Below, one piece after another: positions 5,211 to 51,109 of a stretch of 64,000 bases of DNA. Where the stretch lies: positions 1-64,000 of the IMG/VR virus record IMGVR_UViG_2563366895_000001; one strand, written 5' to 3'. The notes under the pieces were generated by a model. That model ran no database searches. It had not been told where the DNA came from and saw only the letters and a list, made by a program, of their open reading frames with translations. The translations under genes and the position numbers were made by a program. How positions within the stretch are numbered: position 1 is the stretch's first letter; the number at the start of each line of letters is the position of its first letter. Source of the DNA: a virus. Its lineage: Duplodnaviria; Heunggongvirae; Uroviricota; Caudoviricetes.

Positions 5211-5253
5211 CAGGTCCGAAGAGGAGTTTACGTCCAGCTGTGCACAAAAATCA

Positions 5254-5270
5254 ATAATTATTAGAGCAAT
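5254..5270 (-). promoter_or_regulatory. C1 operator (Op99-type, c1/coi control region)
   Basis: ataATTATTAGAGCAAT matches the reverse-complement consensus AAATTTATTAGAGCAAT. Confidence 0.6.
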
Positions 5271-5336
5271 AAATTTAGAGAGAAAAATCCCACTCCACCA
5301 GCTAAAAACTGGATTGTTTTTCATAGTTGTTTGACA

Positions 5337-5353
5337 ATTGCTCTAATAAATTA
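5337..5353 (+). promoter_or_regulatory. C1 operator overlapping a TTGACA -35 box
   Basis: TTGACA followed by ATTGCTCTAATAAATTA, 16 of 17 consensus positions. Confidence 0.65.
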
Positions 5354-5591
5354 TAGTTTTGCCGACGTTACGTAATACGACTTTGGATTCACTATTTAAT
5401 GTGTCTTCAGCGTTGTAGAGCGGCTCAGAAGGAAATGAGCAAACAGGGAAACCTTATACAACGGCATTACAGCTATGCATTGCTCATCTTACACACAGCG
5501 CAATGTTGTTAGATTACCCCAGCATGGATCATGGGTGAAACAGTAGGTCAGAGCTTCAGGCTCTGTGTTGTCAATACAGTGAGGCATAATT

Positions 5592-5801
5592 ATGGCTTTC
5601 ATTCAACCAACCATCGACGACGTTAGACATTGCTCTAACGCTTTATCTGTAGACCCTGCCGAAACCGACGCTGCCCGCGCCATTGCTGAACACTACTCAA
5701 AGATATCCAATCAGGAGTACCGCATCACCCAAGACGACCTGGATGACCTCACTGACACAATCGAATATCTCATGGCAACTAACCAGTTGGACTCACAATA
5801 A
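5592..5801 (+). CDS. coi: Coi, C1 inactivator
   Basis: 69-aa ORF directly upstream of c1 on the same strand, downstream of C1 operators. Confidence 0.8.
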   Translation: MAFIQPTIDDVRHCSNALSVDPAETDAARAIAEHYSKISNQEYRITQDDLDDLTDTIEYLMATNQLDSQ

Positions 5802-5911
5802 ATGCACTAATAAATCTATTATTTTTGTTTGATCCCTCTATAATATAGGTCAGTAATGACCGGTTTTCTCAGCCGGGCGTTATTGACCATGTCAATTCTG
5901 GAGGAGGATCA

Positions 5912-6763
5912 ATGATAAATTATGTCTACGGCGAACAACTGTACCAGGAGTTCGTCAGCTTCAGGGATCTCTTTCTAAAAAAAGCTGTTGCACGCGCCCA
6001 ACACGTTGATACAGCCAGCGACGGTCGTCCTGTACGCCCGGTTGTCGTTCTACCGTTCAAAGAAACTGACAGCATTCAGGCTGAAATTGATAAATGGACT
6101 TTAATGGCGCGGGAACTGGAACAGTACCCAGACCTCAATATCCCAAAGACTATTTTATATCCAGTGCCTAACATCCTTCGCGGTGTGCGTAAGGTTACAA
6201 CTTATCAGACAGAGGCTGTGAACAGCGTCAACATGACCGCTGGCCGCATTATTCATCTGATTGATAAGGACATTCGCATCCAAAAAAGCGCGGGGATCAA
6301 TGAGCACAGTGCGAAATACATAGAGAACCTGGAAGCAACAAAAGAGCTAATGAAGCAGTACCCGGAGGATGAAAAATTCCGTATGCGCGTACACGGCTTT
6401 AGCGAAACAATGCTGCGCGTCCACTACATTTCCAGTAGCCCTAACTACAATGATGGTAAATCAGTTAGTTACCATGTGCCACTGTGTGGCGTGTTTATCT
6501 GCGATGAAACTCTCCGTGATGGAATTATCATCAACGGTGAATTCGAAAAAGCAAAATTTAGCCTTTATGACTCCATAGAACCGATCATCTGCGACCGCTG
6601 GCCGCAAGCAAAAATATATCGCCTGGCAGATATTGAAAATGTAAAAAAACAAATTGCCATCACTCGCGAAGAGAAAAAGGTTAAGTCAGCCGCATCAGTT
6701 ACGCGCAGCCGTAAAACCAAGAAGGGGCAGCCAGTAAACGACAACCCCGAAAGCGCGCAATAA
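5912..6763 (+). CDS. c1: C1 repressor of lysis
   Basis: 283-aa ORF (MINYVYGEQLYQEFVSFRDLFLKKAVARAQHVD...), length and context as P1 C1; its operator is scattered across the window. Confidence 0.9.
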   Translation: MINYVYGEQLYQEFVSFRDLFLKKAVARAQHVDTASDGRPVRPVVVLPFKETDSIQAEIDKWTLMARELEQYPDLNIPKTILYPVPNILRGVRKVTTYQTEAVNSVNMTAGRIIHLIDKDIRIQKSAGINEHSAKYIENLEATKELMKQYPEDEKFRMRVHGFSETMLRVHYISSSPNYNDGKSVSYHVPLCGVFICDETLRDGIIINGEFEKAKFSLYDSIEPIICDRWPQAKIYRLADIENVKKQIAITREEKKVKSAASVTRSRKTKKGQPVNDNPESAQ

Positions 6764-6768
6764 ATTAT

Positions 6769-6786
6769 GCCCGGCATCAACCGGGC
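6769..6786. terminator. Hairpin between convergent c1 and ant-like genes
   Basis: gcccggcatcaaccgggc. Confidence 0.35.
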
Positions 6787-6795
6787 ATTCTTCCA

Positions 6796-7911
6796 TTATT
6801 CAGCCGCCACCGGTTTTAACAAGCCAGCATCGAGCAGTTTACGCGTCAACCACTGCTGGCCTTTACCCGTTAATTGAGGCGTCAACCGTATCTGGTAGCC
6901 ATCTTCATCATCCAGCACCACTTCTTTCACCGTGAAATACCCCGCGTTGATGTACTGCTGGAACGGCACATTTTTACGTCCACCGGACGCTATCAGGATG
7001 CCGTTCTCCCGTAACCAGGCAAACAGCGCGTTTTGCTTAAGTCCAACAACCTTTGCAAAATTCCCAATCAGGATCCCTTTAGCTACTGATACCCGGTCGG
7101 CAAAATCGACTTTAGGAGCGGCGGCCACCAGCTGCTGATTTAGCTGGTGGGCTTTCTGTTCCAGAAGCTGCTTTTGTTCAGCCAGTTCGGCAGCCAGGCG
7201 TAGGGCTTCTGGTAATGTTTGGGGGATTGCAACCGGTTGCTGTTCTTTTTGTCGGAAGTAGCTGTCTTCCAGTTTTTCAAAGAATGCCCATGCCTGATCG
7301 GTTTCGATCATTTTAGCGTGGCGGGCTGCGCCGCGTTCCGTCCAGAGGATGAGTGAGCGGGCTTTAGGAGAGATAGGATTTTGTGAGTTACTTAAAGTCA
7401 CTCGCAAATTGTTCAAATCATCTCCAATAACTTTATAGAAATGCTTGCCTTCACAAAAACGTTCAGCATTACGGGAAAAGTTCTTCTTGATGTTATCCGC
7501 ATCTGTCCCATACCCCTTAGCAAGGATCTTAGTTGTCACTACACGCACTCCCAGCCATTCCAGAACGGGAATTTCATCAGACTGATTCTGAACAACCACC
7601 AGCTCCGATTCCTGAACTGAAGGTGCATGAGTTTTTTCTGATTTAACGTTAGTTGCTTTCATTCTGTGTGCCTCCTTGCGTGTTTCGGCTGCGACGGTTG
7701 CGTAATTCAGATGCCCCTGTTCGAGCAGGTATTCGCGGATATCAGACAACAGAATGCGGTGAACAGCGTTCTTGTCCTTTCTCCGGTAAAGTTGTTTGGT
7801 GATCATGAAGTAGTTGGCAATAACGCCCGGTATATCCCTGGTACTGATACAGGATGTGTGCTGTTCAATTGCCTCAATCATTTCTTCACGGGTGACTAAT
7901 GACGTTCTCAT
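6796..7911 (-). CDS. Antirepressor-like protein (KilA-C type C-terminal domain), paralog of immI Ant
   Basis: 371 aa; C-terminal about 95 aa nearly identical to Ant at 53426-54463 (GILIGNFAKVVGLKQNALF...GYFTVKEVVLDDEDGYQIRLTPQLTGKGQQWLTRKLLDAGLLKPVA) and related to KilA. Confidence 0.7.
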   Translation of the reverse strand: MRTSLVTREEMIEAIEQHTSCISTRDIPGVIANYFMITKQLYRRKDKNAVHRILLSDIREYLLEQGHLNYATVAAETRKEAHRMKATNVKSEKTHAPSVQESELVVVQNQSDEIPVLEWLGVRVVTTKILAKGYGTDADNIKKNFSRNAERFCEGKHFYKVIGDDLNNLRVTLSNSQNPISPKARSLILWTERGAARHAKMIETDQAWAFFEKLEDSYFRQKEQQPVAIPQTLPEALRLAAELAEQKQLLEQKAHQLNQQLVAAAPKVDFADRVSVAKGILIGNFAKVVGLKQNALFAWLRENGILIASGGRKNVPFQQYINAGYFTVKEVVLDDEDGYQIRLTPQLTGKGQQWLTRKLLDAGLLKPVAAE

Positions 7912-8488: not shown

Positions 8489-9973
8489 TCATTCATTAAG
8501 CCATGCCAGAGCTTCATCAACCTGCGCTTCGTCTTCGACGCTAAGCACTTCATCCTGGGGAACATAATCCGCCAGCATAGCGAAACAATATGTATCCCAA
8601 TGGTCTGGTGAGTGCAGGTTGAGTTTTTTCTTCATATCCTCCTTACTCATCACCTTCCATTGACCTGCGGAGTTAATCCCTACAGGGATTTTCGACGCTT
8701 CCTCAATAGTTTCATTACCCTTATCCAGTCTCATACGACCAGATTTTACGGCCTCTGCGGCTTGAACGTTGGCATAAGCACGTTTATCAAAGTACAGGCT
8801 CTTATCTTCACGGCTATGCATCTTTTTACCCCAGCGTATGCGCTGTACGGTAATACCATAATACTCGTACATCAGATCCGCCGTTGCTTTACCCAGGCCA
8901 TCGCCGTCTATCGCTATGGTGATATTTGGGAATCGCTCAGGATTACATTCTGCGAAAATTTTGGCGGCAAGCTGCGTTTCTGTAACGTCTGTGTATTCCA
9001 GCATTCGATAGTTGATTACACGGCGTTTATTTCGCTGGCCGGACACCATCATGATATTGATAACGGACTTATCCCGTCCTGTACCACCAGCAACGTCCAC
9101 ACATGCAAGCCAGCCCCATCCTTTGGCAATCTTGACTTTCCGCCGCGTCGCACGTTCAACCTCATCACGTCCAAGAAGGAAGCCGTCCTGTGATTTAGGG
9201 AATAGCCCGCGTACCTTAATCATGTACATAGGGTTATCACGCCCGCCGTACTCCGCCAGCTTCATTTTGATAAATGCTGGCGTTACCAGCGGTGATTCCT
9301 CACTGTTAAGCGTGATCGCCGTATAAACGCCATCAGGGTTACCAGGACGCTTGGCCAGTTTATGGTGAGTATCGTAGAAATAGCCGCTTGGGCGTGTAGG
9401 CTGTGACAGTAATAAGATGCGGTTATCCTGTCCGGTAAGAGCACCAGTGATGATACCGAAAGCTCTATCACTGACACCGGAGGCTTCATCGATAATATAC
9501 AGAAGATGATCTGCGTGTTCACCGGCGAGAGCTTCTTCACTTCCCAGACGAAAGCCCTTCGGTACTACAGTCCATACACCTTTACCAGTAACCTCATAGA
9601 AAGCGGTTTCTGTCAGAACAAAATAATCAGCAAGCCATGGAAAACGGCTGGTGGCAGTAGCCCAGTTTATCTTGATGTACTTGAATATACCGGTCATTAC
9701 CTGCTGAATTTTGTTCGCAACGATAATGGCGCGGGCACCGGGATACATGATTATGAACAACATGATCATGATAGAAGTCATGTCTGATTTCCCGGTACCG
9801 TGACCAGACGAAACAGATGTCTTGCTACCCTGTTCCTGCACAGACTCAATAATCAGATCCTGCTGCCAGGTAGGTGTTTTGCCGAACAAAACATCAGCGG
9901 CCGCAATCCAGTCATAACGATATAGCGCCACCAGCTCGCGCCAACGTGGATCCGTTACGCAACTTCTGGCCAT
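8489..9973 (-). CDS. pacB: PacB, terminase large subunit
   Basis: 494-aa ORF whose start overlaps the pacA stop; gene order as in P1. Confidence 0.85.
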
Positions 9974-44168: not shown

Positions 44169-45875
44169 TTGAGTAACTTACGCGAATACCAGAATCGTAT
44201 TGCAGATATCGCAAAACGCTCTAAAGCTGTGCTTGGCTGGGCAAGCACTGCGCAGTTCGGTACTGATAACCAATTCATTAAAGATGATGCCGCGCGTGCC
44301 GCATCTATCCTTGAAGCTGCACGTAAAGACCCGGTTTTTGCAGGTATCTCTGATAATGCCACCGCTCAAATTGCTACAGCGTGGGCAAGTGCACTGGCTG
44401 ACTACGCCGCAGCACATAAATCTATGCCGCGTCCGGAAATTCTGGCCTCCTGCCACCAGACGCTGGAAAACTGCCTGATTGAGTCCACCCGCAATAGCAT
44501 GGATGCCACTAATAAAGCGATGCTGGAATCCGTCGCAGCAGAGATGATGAGCGTTTCTGACGGTGTTATGCGTCTGCCTTTATTCCTCGCGATGATCCTG
44601 CCTGTTCAGTTGGGGGCAGCTACCGCTGATGCGTGTACCTTCATTCCGGTTACGCGTGACCAGTCCGATATCTATGAAGTCTTTAACGTGGCAGGTTCCT
44701 CTTTTGGTTCTTATGCTGCTGGTGATGTTCTGGACATGCAATCCGTCGGTGTGTACAGCCAGTTACGCCGCCGCTATGTGCTGGTGGCAAGCTCCGATGG
44801 CACCAGCAAAACCGCAACCTTCAAGATGGAAGACTTCGAAGGCCAGAATGTACCAATCCGAAAAGGTCGCACTAACATCTACGTTAACCGTATTAAGTCT
44901 GTTGTTGATAACGGTTCCGGCAGCCTACTTCACTCGTTTACTAATGCTGCTGGTGAGCAAATCACTGTTACCTGCTCTCTGAACTACAACATTGGTCAGA
45001 TTGCCCTGTCGTTCTCCAAAGCGCCGGATAAAGGCACTGAGATCGCAATTGAGACGGAAATCAATATTGAAGCCGCTCCTGAGCTGATCCCGCTGATCAA
45101 CCACGAAATGAAGAAATACACCCTGTTCCCAAGCCAGTTCGTTATCGCGGCTGAGCACACGGTACAGGCGGCGTATGAAGCACAGCGTGAATTTGGTCTG
45201 GACCTGGGTTCCCTACAGTTCCGCACCCTGAAGGAATACCTGTCTCATGAACAGGATATGCTGCGTCTTCGCATCATGATCTGGCGTACTCTTGCGAACG
45301 ACACCTTTGACATCGCTCTGCCGGTTAACCAGTCCTTTGATGTATGGGCAACCATCATTCGTGGCAAATTCCAGACTGTATATCGCGACATTATTGAGCG
45401 CGTTAAATCTTCTGGTGCGATGGGGATGTTTGCTGGTGCTGATGCAGCATCTTTCTTCAAACAGTTGCCGAAGGATTTCTTCCAGCCAGCCGAAGACTAT
45501 ATCCAGACTCCGTATGTTCACTACATCGGTACCCTGTTCGGTAACGTGAAAGTGTACGAAGTACCTGCTGGTATTTGTAAGAACTTAACGACAGAGAACA
45601 TTCAGTTCAGCTCGATGGATGTGCTGTGCTACGTCCGTGATGAAAATCCGGGTAAAGCAGGCTTCGTGACTGGTGATGCTGTCCCGGCCATCCCGTTCCA
45701 GCATCCGACCACTCCGGCGCTGGTCAACCGTACCACGCTGTGGGGTTCGGCTATCAACGATATGCACCCACGCAACGGCGCTGATTACTTCACTCGTGTA
45801 ACGCTGACAATGGCCAAAAAAGGCGGGCTTAACTTCATAAGCGGCGACACGATTGATGCCGGTGACTCTGAGTAA
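44169..45875 (+). CDS. Putative major capsid protein (gene 23-like); TTG start inferred
   Basis: Long ORF next to parS; no in-frame ATG near the 5' end; TTG at 44169 follows aaggaag RBS. Confidence 0.55.
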   Translation: MSNLREYQNRIADIAKRSKAVLGWASTAQFGTDNQFIKDDAARAASILEAARKDPVFAGISDNATAQIATAWASALADYAAAHKSMPRPEILASCHQTLENCLIESTRNSMDATNKAMLESVAAEMMSVSDGVMRLPLFLAMILPVQLGAATADACTFIPVTRDQSDIYEVFNVAGSSFGSYAAGDVLDMQSVGVYSQLRRRYVLVASSDGTSKTATFKMEDFEGQNVPIRKGRTNIYVNRIKSVVDNGSGSLLHSFTNAAGEQITVTCSLNYNIGQIALSFSKAPDKGTEIAIETEINIEAAPELIPLINHEMKKYTLFPSQFVIAAEHTVQAAYEAQREFGLDLGSLQFRTLKEYLSHEQDMLRLRIMIWRTLANDTFDIALPVNQSFDVWATIIRGKFQTVYRDIIERVKSSGAMGMFAGADAASFFKQLPKDFFQPAEDYIQTPYVHYIGTLFGNVKVYEVPAGICKNLTTENIQFSSMDVLCYVRDENPGKAGFVTGDAVPAIPFQHPTTPALVNRTTLWGSAINDMHPRNGADYFTRVTLTMAKKGGLNFISGDTIDAGDSE

Positions 45876-45935: not shown

Positions 45936-47525
45936 ATGTCTCAATATTCAATTCAACAGTCATTAGGTAATGCATCCGGCGTCGCGGTTAGCCCGATCAA
46001 TGCCGATGCGACGTTATCTACCGGTGTTGCATTAAATAGCAGCTTGTGGGCTGGTATTGGCGTATTTGCGCGTGGCAAGCCGTTTACTGTTCTGGCGGTT
46101 ACTGAGTCCAATTACGAAGATGTTCTCGGCGAACCGCTGAAGCCGTCTTCCGGCTCACAGTTCGAACCAATTCGTCATGTGTACGAAGCTATTCAGCAAA
46201 CGTCTGGTTATGTTGTTCGTGCTGTTCCGGATGATGCGAAGTTCCCGATTATTATGTTCGATGAATCAGGCGAACCAGCTTACAGTGCGTTGCCATACGG
46301 TTCTGAAATTGAACTTGATAGCGGCGAAGCCTTTGCTATCTACGTTGATGATGGTGATCCGTGTATTTCACCTACCCGTGAGTTAACCATCGAAACGGCA
46401 ACAGCGGACAGCGCAGGTAATGAACGCTTCCTCTTAAAACTGACCCAGACGACTTCGCTCGGTGTGGTAACGACCCTGGAGACACACACTGTGTCTTTGG
46501 CGGAAGAAGCGAAAGATGACATGGGCCGCTTGTGTTATCTGCCTACGGCTCTGGAAGCCCGTTCTAAATATCTGCGCGCGGTTGTTAATGAAGAGCTGAT
46601 TTCGACCGCGAAAGTAACAAATAAAAAATCACTGGCGTTCACTGGCGGTACCAACGGCGATCAGTCGAAAATCTCCACCGAAGCCTACCTGCGTGCGGTT
46701 AAGGTGCTGAACAATGCGCCGTACATGTACACCGCTGTTCTCGGCCTGGGTTGCTATGACAATGCGGCGATCACCGCGTTAGGTAATATCTGTTCTGATC
46801 GCCTGATTGATGGCTTCTTTGATGTCAAACCGACATTGACGTATACGGAAGCGCTCTCTGCTGTTGAAGATACCGGTTTACTTGGTACCGATTATGTAAG
46901 CTGTGCTGTCTATCACTTCCCGTTCTCCTGCAAAGACAAATGGACCCAATCCCGTGTGGTCTTCGGTCTGTCTGGCGCGGCGTATGCGGCGAAAGCTCGT
47001 GGCGTCAAGAAAAACTCTGATGTCGGCGGTTGGCATTACTCACCGGCTGGTGAAGAACGTGCCGTCATTGCTCGTGCGTCAATTCAACCGCTGTATCCGG
47101 AAGATACCCCGGACGAAGAAGCAATGGTCAAGGGCCGTCTCAATAAAGTATCTGTTGGCACCTCTGGCCAGATGATCATCGACGATGCTTTAACTTGCTG
47201 CACGCAGGATAACTATCTGCACTTCCAGCACGTCCCATCCCTGATGAATGCAATCAGCCGTTTCTTTGTCCAGTTAGCCCGACAGATGAAGCATAGCCCG
47301 GACGGTATTACTGCGGCTGGCCTGACTAAAGGGATGACCAAACTTTTAGATCGCTTTGTCGCCTCCGGCGCTCTGGTGGCTCCTCGTGATCCTGATGCTG
47401 ACGGTACAGAACCGTATGTGCTGAAAGTTACGCAGGCGGAATTCGATAAATGGGAAGTAGTCTGGGCCTGCTGCCCGACTGGCGTAGCCCGTCGTATCCA
47501 GGGCGTACCGCTGCTTATTAAGTAA
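45936..47525 (+). CDS. Putative contractile tail sheath protein
   Basis: 529-aa ORF following the capsid gene. Confidence 0.55.
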   Translation: MSQYSIQQSLGNASGVAVSPINADATLSTGVALNSSLWAGIGVFARGKPFTVLAVTESNYEDVLGEPLKPSSGSQFEPIRHVYEAIQQTSGYVVRAVPDDAKFPIIMFDESGEPAYSALPYGSEIELDSGEAFAIYVDDGDPCISPTRELTIETATADSAGNERFLLKLTQTTSLGVVTTLETHTVSLAEEAKDDMGRLCYLPTALEARSKYLRAVVNEELISTAKVTNKKSLAFTGGTNGDQSKISTEAYLRAVKVLNNAPYMYTAVLGLGCYDNAAITALGNICSDRLIDGFFDVKPTLTYTEALSAVEDTGLLGTDYVSCAVYHFPFSCKDKWTQSRVVFGLSGAAYAAKARGVKKNSDVGGWHYSPAGEERAVIARASIQPLYPEDTPDEEAMVKGRLNKVSVGTSGQMIIDDALTCCTQDNYLHFQHVPSLMNAISRFFVQLARQMKHSPDGITAAGLTKGMTKLLDRFVASGALVAPRDPDADGTEPYVLKVTQAEFDKWEVVWACCPTGVARRIQGVPLLIK

Positions 47526-47534
47526 GGGAATACA

Positions 47535-48350
47535 ATGAGCAAAAACTTTTTTCAATCCGGGGCATTTTTGGGGAATGGACTGTCTCGTTTCGCTTTGAAC
47601 TCTGATCCTGTGCAGTTGATGGAGTCTGCCCGAGCAAGCGCCGAACCGCCAACAGATCCGGTTATTAATAATAATCCGGAACCGGCGGCACAGACTAACG
47701 ATAACGTTCCATCTGATCCGGCTCCTGAGCAAATCCTGGAAGAGAAAGACGGTAAAGAATGGACCGTTGAACAGGCGCACCAGATGATTCTGGAAGCTGC
47801 AAATCGAAGTGCTATGCAAAATGCGTTGAGTGATGCGGCCGACGCCGTTTTCGCCTGGGCTGATAGCGGTGATCTGACTTTCGACTCCCTTGATGGTTTC
47901 GTTCAGGCTATCGCTGGTATCTCTGATGACGACGACTCCGAAGTTACAGAAGAACAGGACGATGCCTATAACGAAGCATGGGCAAATGTTGCTGACTTCC
48001 TCGCAGCATGCGGTGTAGATGATGACCTGATCGAAGCACTGGCTGACGATGAAGACGACGACGCAGCTGCTGATGTTGGTGCCTCTATCGCTGGTTTAGA
48101 TAGCGACGACCGTGATGAACTGGAAGCGGCGTTTGTTGTTGCTGGCACTTCTGATGAAATGCTGACTGAAGCATTTAAGAAGGTTGTTCGTAACGGTGAG
48201 ATCAAACTCATCCGTAAACGCCTGCGTAAAAAACGTCTGACTGCGGCTCAAAAATCGGCGCTGAAAAAAGCGCGTCGAAAAGCCCAGACCGGCGCGGCAA
48301 AACTTGCCCGCAAAAAGTCAATGAAACTGCGCCGTAAGCGCCTTGGCTAA
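47535..48350 (+). CDS. Acidic protein with strongly basic C-terminal tail
   Basis: 271 aa; D/E-rich body (DDEDDDAAADVGASIAGLDSDDRDELEAAF) and C-terminus RKRLRKKRLTAAQKSALKKARRKAQTGAAKLARKKSMKLRRKRLG. Confidence 0.5.
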   Translation: MSKNFFQSGAFLGNGLSRFALNSDPVQLMESARASAEPPTDPVINNNPEPAAQTNDNVPSDPAPEQILEEKDGKEWTVEQAHQMILEAANRSAMQNALSDAADAVFAWADSGDLTFDSLDGFVQAIAGISDDDDSEVTEEQDDAYNEAWANVADFLAACGVDDDLIEALADDEDDDAAADVGASIAGLDSDDRDELEAAFVVAGTSDEMLTEAFKKVVRNGEIKLIRKRLRKKRLTAAQKSALKKARRKAQTGAAKLARKKSMKLRRKRLG

Positions 48351-48385
48351 AGGAGGAGGCCGGAGAACTCCGGCCTTTAACTTGA

Positions 48386-48967
48386 ATGGCACCTATACCT
48401 TATGGGGTTTACAGCCAGGCTGACGGTGTATCGCCATTTCTGAAAGTTACTTTAACGAACTCTCAGTATCAGGTTACCGGATATATCAGCCAGGGGGCAG
48501 CAATGAACATGGCCCAGAATTGGGAAGCGCCGTTTACCGGTATGTCCATGGGGTCTGTTGCTGGTGCTTTCAGTGGTTTTGCGCAGGTTGGTACTGAAAC
48601 AACGTCGGTGGCCCGTTGGAACAGCTTAATGGTTTGGGAAGGGGGAACACCGCCGACTTTCACGCTGCCAGTAACTTTCATCGCTTTGTTTGACCCATTC
48701 ACGGAGGTTTCAGGAGCTATCGCCGCATTGTCAGCGATGATTAGCCCGGAACTTAAAGATGCCAGTATTGGTGGTCGAATCCCGGAGCGTGTGACGCTAA
48801 ACATTGGTCGCCGGATCAACATCATTGATGTCGCTATCCAGGACATAAGTTTCGATCTCGATGCGCCCAGGGACAGCAATGGGCATTTCCTGAAAAACAC
48901 CGTCAACCTCCAGTTGACCGGTTCTTCGATATATAACAGCTCCGATATTGTTCGGGCGTTCCAGTAA
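48386..48967 (+). CDS. Putative tail protein (tube candidate)
   Basis: 193-aa ORF in the sheath operon. Confidence 0.4.
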   Translation: MAPIPYGVYSQADGVSPFLKVTLTNSQYQVTGYISQGAAMNMAQNWEAPFTGMSMGSVAGAFSGFAQVGTETTSVARWNSLMVWEGGTPPTFTLPVTFIALFDPFTEVSGAIAALSAMISPELKDASIGGRIPERVTLNIGRRINIIDVAIQDISFDLDAPRDSNGHFLKNTVNLQLTGSSIYNSSDIVRAFQ

Positions 48968-48978
48968 AAGGATTTTAT

Positions 48979-49488
48979 ATGGGGCACAATAACACTAAGG
49001 GAAACCGTAAATTTATTAAGGGCCGCTATACTGCCAACGCGGCCAAAGGCGAACGACTGGTATCTTCTGAATTCCAGCTCACTTTTGCAGGCTATGAAGA
49101 TATCAGTGTACTTGTTCGTACGTCGCAAATCCCTGAAATGACTCGCGAGGATGTGGAGGACTATGGTCCGAATGGTGTGAAGTTCAACCAGCACGGACCA
49201 ATTCGAAACTCTGGGGAAATCCAGGTCCAGTGCGTGGAGACTATCGAAGGCGATATTCTTCAGTTCATCAAGGATCGCATTGCGGCGAAGGACTATGTTG
49301 ATATCACGATGGCTGCTACCCCTGAATCCAAATCTTCCGGGGTTAACGCTGTGACAAAAGCTGCTACAACAATTGAAATGTTGGACTGCAAAATCTACAG
49401 TGATGCAATCGACTTTAGTACCGAAGATGTGACTGCCGCTGTGCGCCCGTCACTTCGTATCGTCTACAACTGGATTGAGTGGGATTAA
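48979..49488 (+). CDS. Putative tail protein
   Basis: 169-aa ORF followed by a terminator. Confidence 0.4.
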   Translation: MGHNNTKGNRKFIKGRYTANAAKGERLVSSEFQLTFAGYEDISVLVRTSQIPEMTREDVEDYGPNGVKFNQHGPIRNSGEIQVQCVETIEGDILQFIKDRIAAKDYVDITMAATPESKSSGVNAVTKAATTIEMLDCKIYSDAIDFSTEDVTAAVRPSLRIVYNWIEWD

Positions 49489-49592: not shown

Positions 49593-50931
49593 CATAAGCG
49601 CTAACTTAAGGGTTGTGGTATTACGCCTGATATGATTTAACGTGCCGATGAATTACTCTCACGATAACTGGTCAGCAATTCTGGCCCATATTGGTAAGCC
49701 CGAAGAACTGGATACTTCGGCACGTAATGCCGGGGCTCTAACCCGCCGCCGCGAAATTCGTGATGCTGCAACTCTGCTACGTCTGGGGCTGGCTTACGGC
49801 CCCGGGGGGATGTCATTACGTGAAGTCACTGCATGGGCTCAGCTCCATGACGTTGCAACATTATCTGACGTGGCTCTCCTGAAGCGGCTGCGGAATGCCG
49901 CCGACTGGTTTGGCATACTTGCCGCACAAACACTTGCTGTACGCGCCGCAGTTACGGGTTGTACAAGCGGAAAGAGATTGCGTCTTGTCGATGGAACAGC
50001 AATCAGTGCGCCCGGGGGCGGCAGCGCTGAATGGCGACTACATATGGGATATGATCCTCATACCTGTCAGTTCACTGATTTTGAGCTAACCGACAGCAGA
50101 GACGCTGAACGGCTGGACCGATTTGCGCAAACGGCAGACGAGATACGCATTGCTGACCGGGGATTCGGTTCGCGTCCCGAATGTATCCGCTCACTTGCTT
50201 TTGGAGAAGCTGATTATATCGTCCGGGTTCACTGGCGAGGATTGCGCTGGTTAACTGCAGAAGGAATGCGCTTTGACATGATGGGTTTTCTGCGCGGGCT
50301 GGATTGCGGTAAGAACGGTGAAACCACTGTAATGATAGGCAATTCAGGTAATAAAAAAGCCGGAGCTCCCTTTCCGGCACGTCTCATTGCCGTATCACTT
50401 CCTCCCGAAAAAGCATTAATCAGTAAAACCCGACTGCTCAGCGAGAATCGTCGAAAAGGACGAGTAGTTCAGGCGGAAACGCTGGAAGCAGCGGGCCATT
50501 TGCTATTGCTAACATCATTACCGGAAGATGAATATTCAGCAGAGCAAGTGGCTGATTGTTACCGTCTGCGATGGCAAATTGAACTGGCTTTTAAGCGGCT
50601 CAAAAGTTTGCTGCACCTGGATGCTTTGCGTGCAAAGGAACCTGAACTCGCGAAAGCGTGGATATTTGCTAATCTACTCGCCGCATTTTTAATTGACGAC
50701 ATAATCCAGCCATCGCTGGATTTCCCCCCCAGAAGTGCTGGATCCGAAAAGAAGAACTAACTCGTTGTGGAGAATAACAAAAATGGTCATCTGGAGCTTA
50801 CAGGTGGCCATTCGTGGGACAGTATCCCTGACAGCCTACAAAACGCAATTGAAGAACGCGAGGCATCGTCTTAACGAGGCACCGAGGCGTCGCATTCTTC
50901 AGATGGTTCAACCCTTAAGTTAGCGCTTATG
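49593..50931 (+). mobile_element. IS186-like insertion sequence (IS4 family), 1339 bp
   Basis: 23-bp terminal inverted repeats CATAAGCGCTAACTTAAGGGTTG at both ends, single transposase ORF, 10-bp direct repeats, inserted into a G4-N6-C4 palindrome (typical IS186 target). Confidence 0.85.
49642..50760 (+). CDS. IS4-family DDE transposase
   Basis: 372 aa with C-terminal YRLRWQIELAFKRLKS motif. Confidence 0.85.
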   Translation: MPMNYSHDNWSAILAHIGKPEELDTSARNAGALTRRREIRDAATLLRLGLAYGPGGMSLREVTAWAQLHDVATLSDVALLKRLRNAADWFGILAAQTLAVRAAVTGCTSGKRLRLVDGTAISAPGGGSAEWRLHMGYDPHTCQFTDFELTDSRDAERLDRFAQTADEIRIADRGFGSRPECIRSLAFGEADYIVRVHWRGLRWLTAEGMRFDMMGFLRGLDCGKNGETTVMIGNSGNKKAGAPFPARLIAVSLPPEKALISKTRLLSENRRKGRVVQAETLEAAGHLLLLTSLPEDEYSAEQVADCYRLRWQIELAFKRLKSLLHLDALRAKEPELAKAWIFANLLAAFLIDDIIQPSLDFPPRSAGSEKKN

Positions 50932-50941
50932 GGATCTCTCC
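50932..50941. repeat. Target-site duplication (right copy)
   Basis: GGATCTCTCC. Confidence 0.7.
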
Positions 50942-50953
50942 CCGCCAGGTCTC

Positions 50954-51109
50954 TTACCTTTCAGATTCGTAGGCTGTGAAGACAGTGACCTCCGTCTGGC
51001 CGGTTCGGATTCGTACCTCGCAGAGGTCTTTCCTCGTTACCAGTGCCGTCACAATGACGGTTAAACAGATGACGATCAGAGCGATTAACATCGCTTTTTG
51101 CTGCTTCAT
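50954..51109 (-). CDS. hok: Hok/Gef-family type I toxin
   Basis: 51-aa ORF translated codon by codon: MKQQKAMLIALIVICLTVIVTALVTRKDLCEVRIRTGQTEVTVFTAYESER, close to E. coli HokD/RelF and HokC; AAGGAG RBS; below track cut-off. Confidence 0.85.
   Translation of the reverse strand: MKQQKAMLIALIVICLTVIVTALVTRKDLCEVRIRTGQTEVTVFTAYESER

Follow-up and report, generated by a model that had tools for sequence, protein, structure and literature searches.

In this study, we analyzed a stretch of 64,000 nucleotides of viral DNA (Caudoviricetes; IMG/VR record IMGVR_UViG_2563366895_000001, positions 1 to 64,000), in the following called the window, and in particular its open reading frame (ORF) at 47535-48350, which is gene 21 of a P1-like phage-plasmid, a known and named gene. 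In our estimation, there is about an even chance that its product gp21 is a protease-processed, scaffold-like protein of the prohead core, from which cleavage would free a peptide of 59 amino acids (aa) with a net charge of +25; as a substrate of the head protease, gp21 would then be a component of the prohead interior. New here are three or four motifs of the type phi-phi-E↓[S/A] in gp21 (the arrow marking the proven or predicted cut), i.e., candidate sites of the same type as the proven cut in the major capsid protein. These repeated prohead-protease motifs are the informative feature of the protein and were not part of the original prediction, which had stressed a strongly acidic body with a polybasic C-terminal tail and proposed an injected or anti-defence protein. 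The charge segregation is best explained by an acidic pro- or scaffold body and a conserved polybasic module with a protease site between the two, and the functional label of gene 21 is probably wrong.

The ORF at 47535-48350 is intact and exists as originally described, comprising 271 codons and a stop codon on the plus strand (as do all genes, domains, and sites of this gene block given below), and its translation is identical to the sequence from which the original prediction had been made, including the C-terminal string. At the DNA level, it revealed 97-99% identity to gene 21 of P1, P7, SJ46, and RCS47, and the 12 kb around it match hundreds of P1-like plasmids from E. coli and Salmonella. 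The only PHROG matched by gp21 is PHROG 1053 (E = 3.4e-99, residues 10-270), whose annotated function is unknown. A search with the family profile yielded 596 cluster representatives at E ≤ 1e-3, 378 of them at E ≤ 1e-10, and the recovered homologs are almost all 200-260 aa long, nearly full length, and unchanged in their layout. Based on the DNA identity among P1 relatives and on this large family with the same architecture, gene 21 is a real gene under selection. It lies in the order 23 (major capsid protein, 44169-45875, with a 120-aa pro-domain carrying three copies of the motif) - 22 (tail sheath, 45936-47525, used as a control protein here) - 21 - pmgG - bplB (tube-linking ring and tail tube, respectively, according to annotation and cryo-electron microscopy (cryo-EM) papers; together 48386-49488), and the P1 record displays the late promoter LP23 upstream of gene 23, which bears out the earlier placement in the sheath operon. 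The labels of gene 21 vary by record, being 'baseplate or tail tube' in P1 and 'tail tube protein Gp21', 'tail protein', or 'hypothetical protein' in others; the label 'tail tube protein' has been carried into SJ46, RCS47, and UniRef entries.

The reported charge layout was confirmed by counting. Residues 1-226 combine 52 Asp/Glu with 11 Lys/Arg (net -41, isoelectric point (pI) 4.05), whereas residues 227-271 contain 22 Lys/Arg and not a single Asp/Glu (net +22). This segregation was not equalled by any of 20,000 shuffled versions of the protein. An AlphaFold model built on 28 homologs, with a mean predicted local distance difference test score (pLDDT) of 71.6, displayed a disordered region over the N-terminal 75 residues, a confident and acidic helical bundle at residues 78-210 (47766-48164; pLDDT about 90), a low-confidence linker, and a C-terminus with two basic helices (237-250 and 253-270) besides a short beta-hairpin (VVRNGEIK), the basic helix-turn-helix being predicted at pLDDT 70-82. 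According to alignment and model, hairpin and helices together form a polybasic module at residues 213-271 (48171-48347; 6.8 kDa, net +25, pI 12), which is the best-conserved part of the family with a mean column identity of 57% over very distant members. Residues 1-30 (47535-47624), which are disordered in the model, form a conserved peptide before the first predicted cut and possibly serve as a targeting peptide or pro-peptide.

Homology searches gave few hints. Whole gp21 found no useful match in Pfam, NCBIfam, or the PDB sequences, and a Foldseek search of the model against PDB and BFVD returned a best E value of 0.27. A profile of the basic module had no match in PDB or Pfam (both at E ≤ 10) and hit only short fragments at contig ends in a large protein database. 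The N-terminus showed no similarity to the N-terminal signal of DarB and is common to no other ORF of the window.

As a reference for the candidate protease sites served the P1 capsid protein gp23, for which Edman sequencing proved the maturation cut at AMLE120↓S121 (PMC9024508), i.e., AMLE120↓S121V at 44517-44534 of the window, and by which the 120-aa pro-domain is removed. In DarA, the other known processed head protein of P1, the cryo-EM density starts at residue 70, just past DLLE68↓A69. AMLE↓S of gp23 and DLLE↓A of DarA, the only cut sites known for the P1 head protease Pro, match the motifs in gp21, which are therefore of the same type. Alignment of the family placed the first predicted site at LME30↓S31 (47616-47627; family consensus MLE↓SA), the second at ILE87↓A88, where the helical domain begins (47787-47798), and the third, which was also supported by the paired loci described below, at LTE212↓A213 directly before the basic module (48162-48173). 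A possible additional site, ILE69↓E70, lies in a Pro-rich linker (47733-47744) and aligns with LLE↓S or MFE↓G of close relatives. The alignment columns of E30, A88, and E212 (P1 numbering) hardly vary across the family. In every case examined, a motif immediately precedes the basic module; some homologs carry a duplicated module with a motif ahead of each copy, and in some distant homologs three to seven copies of the N-terminal motif occur within disordered sequence. In regard to the protease itself, P1 pro (L086, 1015-2034; head processing protein) is labelled 'tail fiber protein' both in RefSeq and in PHROG 1801, a label that looks wrong.

When all 65 ORFs of the window with a length of 150 aa or more were scanned for the motif [LIMF][LIMFT]E[SA], gene 21 ranked first in motif density, with four copies or 1.48 per 100 aa, the next best ORF reaching 0.57. 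The only other ORF with at least three copies was the capsid gene, and all three of them are located inside the removed pro-domain. In P1, the copies in the gp23 pro-domain (44169-44531 of the window) read SILE↓A, CLIE↓S, and AMLE↓S, and relatives with Asp instead of Glu before the cut (D-type) display three to four xLD↓ motifs. Judged by these several internal copies, the capsid pro-domain is probably chopped into small pieces and not removed as a whole.

If the motifs in gp21 are protease sites, they should track lineage-specific changes at the capsid maturation site. We therefore aligned both proteins from 86 loci carrying a capsid gene together with a gp21 homolog. In P1, the capsid site AMLE↓SV is accompanied by LME↓S, ILE↓A, and LTE↓A in gp21; in locus L084, GIFE↓AA by CILE↓AA and AIFE↓AT; and in Xenorhabdus, AMFE↓SV by AMME↓SN, MLLE↓AV, and AMME↓AS. 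For L087, Vibrio owensii, the capsid site is AILD↓SA and the homolog harbors PVFD↓S, QILD↓A, and LILD↓AT, and a large environmental clade with SLD↓SA in the capsid possesses one to three copies of LD↓S together with ALD↓AVYKK before the module. An element of Vibrio fluvialis combines LLLA↓SV in the capsid with LILA↓SM, ALFA↓SV, and LLLS↓ST in the gp21 homolog. Comparison of the residue before the cut in the capsid with that of the site before the module resulted in 65 D-D, 17 E-E, and one A-S pair, an agreement in 83 of the 86 loci, the other three being misaligned.

The switch is confined to gp21 homologs and capsid pro-domains. N-terminal regions of gp21 homologs contained 22 E-motifs and two D-motifs in genomes with Glu at the capsid site (E-type) and 0 and 55, respectively, in D-type genomes (Fisher 1.4e-17, uncorrected for phylogeny), while the E:D ratio of the helical body was alike in both groups (179:342 in E-type versus 626:1218 in D-type). 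Capsid pro-domains switched likewise (32 E and 5 D versus 26 E and 143 D), and mature capsid regions revealed no switch. Nor did sheath, PmgG, and tube proteins encoded in these loci switch; the sheath changed from 0.68 E- and 0.43 D-motifs per 100 aa to 0.54 and 0.52, compared to a change from 1.69 and 1.09 to 0.23 and 1.57 in the gp21 homologs. In its motif content, gp21 thus behaves like the protease-removed part of the capsid protein and unlike its tail neighbors. The D state, as read from the capsid sequences, arose at least twice, since the capsids of L087, L183, and L186 share 42-49% identity with E-type capsids and only 17-20% with the large D clade. In the Vibrio fluvialis element (L085; capsid gene at 5233-6885, gp21 homolog at 9001-9702), Ala or Ser precedes every predicted cut in both proteins. 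This single example suggests a head protease of altered specificity in that lineage, for which a scan of viral contigs revealed no relatives.

The initial scan of viral contigs had detected near-identical copies of P1 only; the distant relatives examined include a Mailhella-like metagenome contig, an 826-kb contig, Vibrio fluvialis, and Acinetobacter phage ABMM1. In these relatives, the genes form one contiguous block in the order capsid - small ORF - sheath - gp21 homolog - PmgG - BplB - PmgC - Tub - PmgB - tape measure - PmgA - BplA (L084, 4094-13709; L085, 5233-15838; L087, 5404-16288), which in P1 is divided into two separate clusters. The tape measure proteins are 611, 961, and 1034 aa long, compared to the 120.6-kDa Sit of P1. 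The small ORF between capsid and sheath genes (103-182 aa; L084, 5823-6371; L085, 6952-7377; L087, 7057-7440; L082, 5924-6235) had no match in PHROG or Pfam and is absent from P1 and from the window, where 60 nt separate genes 23 and 22. The PHROGs database files the families of PmgG (48386-48967 of the window), PmgC, and PmgB under 'head and packaging / head morphogenesis', which looks wrong; according to cryo-EM and knockouts, PmgG belongs to the tail and PmgC to the connector.

Searches with tblastn revealed the basic module alone, inside larger acidic proteins, in Bacillus myophages SP-15 and vB_BceM-HSE3. There, the genes are arranged in the order head maturation protease - T4-like capsid - ORF - gp13-like neck - module protein - five small ORFs - sheath, and thus the linkage to the sheath gene is not universal. 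In both phages, the module is flanked by xxE↓ sites on either side, namely NLDE↓ATKKVVRGG...RNRLGE↓ST in HSE3 and ELDE↓RMKLVVRGG...RRRFKE↓SM in SP-15, which suggests that the module itself is excised.

Based on these observations, the following course of events can be proposed. Full-length gp21 would be made at a high level from the late transcript of genes 23, 22, and 21 and enter the assembling prohead, where Pro would cut it after E30, probably E69, E87, and E212. The predicted fragments are residues 1-30 (3.3 kDa, net 0), 31-69 (4.1 kDa, net -6), 70-87 (2.2 kDa, net -3), 88-212 (13.0 kDa, net -35), and 213-271 (59 aa, 6.8 kDa, net +25, pI 12), so that the last cut would part the acidic helical body from the polybasic module. 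The acidic pieces, whose helical body fits the usual properties of scaffolds, would be scaffold-like debris displaced by the incoming DNA. The basic module would be the functional anchor or product, i.e., either an internal peptide on the packaged DNA or an element holding the protein to the shell. Since the module is kept across different capsid families, can be duplicated, and can be flanked by sites on both sides, we lean slightly toward a peptide that may remain on the DNA over a shell anchor like that of P22. Binding of nucleic acid by the basic module, one of the earlier suggestions, is plausible, and the term 'injected' could conceivably apply only to the protease-released basic peptide, provided that it stays with the packaged DNA.

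In its presumed way of working, gp21 seems most like the protease-processed prohead core proteins of phage T4, namely gp22 and the internal proteins, though it cannot be demonstrated to be a member of any of the families compared here, since neither sequence nor fold homology was found. The T4 prohead core contains the scaffold gp22 and the internal proteins IPI-III with their N-terminal targeting peptide, which are cut by the T4 gp21 protease. Similar to these core proteins, P1 gp21 is acidic and helical with about 270 aa, harbors several hydrophobic-x-Glu↓ sites of the capsid-site type and an N-terminal peptide before the first site, and is absent in full-length form from mature virions; a basic product, as predicted after cleavage, would parallel the T4 internal proteins. 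Unlike in T4, gene 21 of P1 follows the sheath gene and is not located beside the protease gene, its genetics are of the tail type, and prohead location and cleavage are predictions from the sequence. While the T4 internal proteins are variable, the basic part of gp21 is C-terminal and highly conserved.

In the P22 scaffold gp8, a C-terminal basic helix-turn-helix binds the coat protein (PDB 2GP8), and the protein is recycled uncut. Likewise, the body of gp21 is helical, elongated, and acidic, and a basic helix-turn-helix, predicted at its end, is the most conserved part of the protein. In contrast to gp8, its module has no PDB match, carries an additional beta-hairpin, is directly preceded by a protease motif, and is duplicated or flanked on both sides in some homologs. 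With capsid delta domains of the HK97/T5 type, gp21 shares an N-terminal region that resembles the P1 pro-domain in motif content and in the clade-specific switching between E and D; unlike them, it is a separate polypeptide.

Several data from the literature bear on the current annotation, according to which gp21 would be a structural virion protein of baseplate or tail tube. The GenBank and RefSeq labels speak for this reading, which we consider very unlikely and close to refuted. In the assignments of the P1 cryo-EM studies of 2023 and 2026, BplB forms the tube, Tub is the initiator, PmgG the tube-linking ring, and gp24 the terminator, and all modelled baseplate densities belong to proteins other than gp21. 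PHROG tail-tube families match the homologs of bplB and tub and not gp21, and the model is helical and disordered instead of displaying the beta-sandwich of tube proteins. Thus, the class of tail tube proteins with the T4 gp19/lambda gpV fold was rejected for gp21, given that it had no match to a tube PHROG or Pfam family, that its model is helical, and that the rings are assigned to BplB, Tub, and PmgG. Analysis of P1 virions using liquid chromatography coupled to tandem mass spectrometry (LC-MS/MS) detected ORFs 54, 55, 57, and 58, and ORF 56 (gp21) is not listed in Table 1; P1 gp21 was never discussed, nor is it mentioned in the supplement of the Gonzales paper. This absence, despite four good tryptic peptides that full-length gp21 offers in an in-silico digest, agrees with the earlier view of a non-structural protein. 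In the same digest, fragments 88-212 and 213-271 yielded almost no fully tryptic peptides of usable size, and therefore the published proteomics rules out only abundant full-length gp21 and says nothing about the fragments. Altogether, the helical and disordered model and the absence from the virion proteome and from two cryo-EM models support the earlier statement that the protein is unusual for a tail structural protein.

Compatibility with proteomics also extends to the idea that gp21 is a packaged and injected DNA mimic, whose acidic domain would block restriction enzymes or nucleases, as the two large fragments could be retained in virions while being nearly silent after tryptic digestion. 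In addition, residues 88-212 give the body a very acidic character (net -35), and P1 offers a precedent by packaging the protease-processed anti-restriction protein DarA in its head. Nevertheless, we found no likeness in fold or sequence to Ocr, ArdA, or other DNA mimics and anti-restriction proteins, Foldseek giving nothing below E = 0.27 in PDB and BFVD. The family is fixed and syntenic in the morphogenesis module over a very deep divergence, unlike accessory anti-defence genes, and its most conserved part is the basic module and not the acidic surface. Among knockouts of P1 pmg and upf genes, 24 of 29 left anti-restriction unchanged, the collection being one without gene 21. The suggested resemblance to DNA mimics was thus not borne out, nothing ties gp21 to defence, and this reading, which has no direct support, appears improbable.

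A more serious alternative is that gp21 acts as a non-virion factor of tail assembly, i.e., a chaperone or scaffold that would play a part like that of lambda gpG/gpGT in the initiation of baseplate hub or tube. Tape measure or tube subunits would be held by the acidic body of gp21, the acidic lumen of the tube would receive its basic tail, and the protein would leave before the tail is done. The tube lumen of P1 was reported to be negatively charged in the cryo-EM paper, which would suit a tail of +22, and absence from virions is what chaperones display. Similar to the chaperones of lambda (gpG/gpGT) and P2 (gpE/E+E'), gp21 is acidic, essential by operon, non-virion, and encoded in a tail gene block. 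Unlike them, it shows no homology to tail assembly chaperones or structural proteins in Pfam, NCBIfam, PHROGs, PDB, or Foldseek, so that the homology and structure searches proposed earlier yielded no relative of either kind. A frameshift partner was likewise rejected, as no other ORF of at least 50 aa on the plus strand overlaps or follows within 47535-48385. Furthermore, the slot directly upstream of the tape measure gene, which is usual for tail chaperones, is occupied by pmgB and not by gene 21. PmgB has been proposed in the literature as the tape-measure chaperone; its homolog in L084 (10892-11686) weakly matched, besides its own family, the PHROG 'baseplate hub' (phrog_150, E = 6e-4), and its role may deserve a second look. 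A tail factor would leave unexplained why three to four motifs of gp21 track the capsid site while sheath, PmgG, and tube proteins do not, and why the gene of the module protein in the Bacillus phages neighbors those of protease, capsid, and neck, at a distance of five genes from the sheath gene. To our knowledge, no tail assembly chaperone carries head-protease sites. On balance, we regard a tail assembly factor as a somewhat doubtful explanation, but as one to be taken seriously in the light of the genetics.

The genetics weigh against gp21 as a prohead protein. The label 'baseplate or tail tube' is reportedly a phenotype class derived from amber mutants viewed by electron microscopy in 1983. 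According to the annotation of the P1 record, the amber mutants representing genetic gene 21 fall into the class with defects of baseplate or tail tube, as a tail factor would predict, and if these ambers lie in ORF 21 and the heads are normal, gp21 is not an essential head scaffold. The flag 'amber mutant reported' for gene 21 records only the existence of such mutants. A CRISPR interference (CRISPRi) screen scored gene 21 as essential, the knock-down being lethal, though, by the authors' own warning, polar on pmgG and bplB. The literature searched contained neither a clean deletion of ORF 21 nor an experimental study of gp21 itself, nor any proteomics of P1 proheads. This conflict may have one of three causes. 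The amber alleles may have been misassigned and lie in the adjoining genes pmgG or bplB, the true tube and baseplate genes, an option that is exactly fitted by the phenotype of a pmgG deletion (no tails, polysheath). Alternatively, ORF 21 may indeed hold the alleles, with polar effects on pmgG and bplB, or gp21 may be a real tail assembly factor that also carries motifs.

Further points against a prohead role concern location and motif. Gene 21 lies between the sheath gene and pmgG/bplB in every P1-like relative examined, where a tail function would be expected. The motif is short, and the number of independent switches between E, D, and A is only about three. The Glu at position 49 of the capsid pro-domain (P1 numbering) stays Glu in D-type as well as A-type lineages; this copy may thus not be a cut site, and not every copy of the motif need be one. 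No link between P1 Pro and the Glu-specific T4 protease was found via Pfam, PDB, or an informative PHROG. The present analysis showed the architecture, the motifs, and their co-variation with the capsid site, a co-variation that tail proteins lack; we infer that gp21 is present in the prohead and is indeed cleaved, and likewise what becomes of the basic module and with what it associates. As the genetics of gene 21 are of the tail type, we hold the prohead role at evenly balanced chances and keep a tail assembly factor as its rival at a distinctly modest level of belief.

In the surroundings of gene 21, some further features were observed. At 48351-48385, a strong RNA hairpin with the core GGCCGGAG/CTCCGGCC (free energy -23.8 kcal/mol, z = -5.3) spans the whole 35-nt gap from the stop codon of gene 21 to the start of pmgG. 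The sole Shine-Dalgarno-like sequence, AGGAGGAGG, is located 5' of the hairpin with a part of it inside, and none is found beside the ATG of pmgG. The hairpin could be an attenuator or an element of mRNA stability between the abundant products of genes 23, 22, and 21 and the low-copy PmgG, or it could bring a split ribosome-binding site near the ATG by folding. Directly after bplB, the interval 49642-51109 harbors an IS4-family transposase (IS421-like, 372 aa) followed by an ORF for a Hok/Gef toxin on the minus strand (50954-51109; Pfam E = 2.4e-22). P1 carries pmgF, rlfB, and rlfA in the corresponding interval, and the arrangement of transposase and Hok/Gef ORF also occurs in many P1-like plasmids of E. 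coli and Salmonella.

In adenovirus, basic DNA-condensing core peptides are released from the precursors pVII and pre-Mu by the virion protease. As a more tentative extension, the proteins of PHROG 1053 might in general be precursors of a capsid-internal polybasic peptide and as such a counterpart of pre-Mu/pVII. The acidic pro-domain would prevent the module of about 60 residues from doing harm in the cytoplasm and bring it into the prohead, where the head protease would excise it, and the module would stay on the DNA and enter the host. The analogy is a functional one, resting on a polybasic peptide that is flanked by virion-protease sites in its precursor and released in the capsid; virus, protease, and sequences are unrelated, and DNA binding by the P1 module is only supposed. 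Such precursors would span P1-like phage-plasmids to Bacillus jumbo phages, and the peptide would be invisible to tryptic proteomics as well as to icosahedral cryo-EM.

In regard to P1 itself, both structure papers state that it has no identified separate scaffolding protein, a statement also made in the LC-MS/MS study, and the literature takes the capsid delta domain, plus DarA, as the only scaffold. If gp21 is a substrate of the prohead protease, this picture of P1 as a phage without a separate scaffold, with head size set via the capsid pro-domain and DarA/Hdf, would be incomplete, and the 40-year-old label 'baseplate or tail tube' ('tail tube protein') would be wrong. A family of about 600 cluster representatives would gain a testable function, and the co-variation of motifs with the capsid maturation site offers a cheap and general way to find substrates of prohead proteases. 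Finally, a conserved polybasic peptide packaged with the DNA would bear on DNA condensation, on ejection, and on the use of P1 capsids as delivery vehicles.

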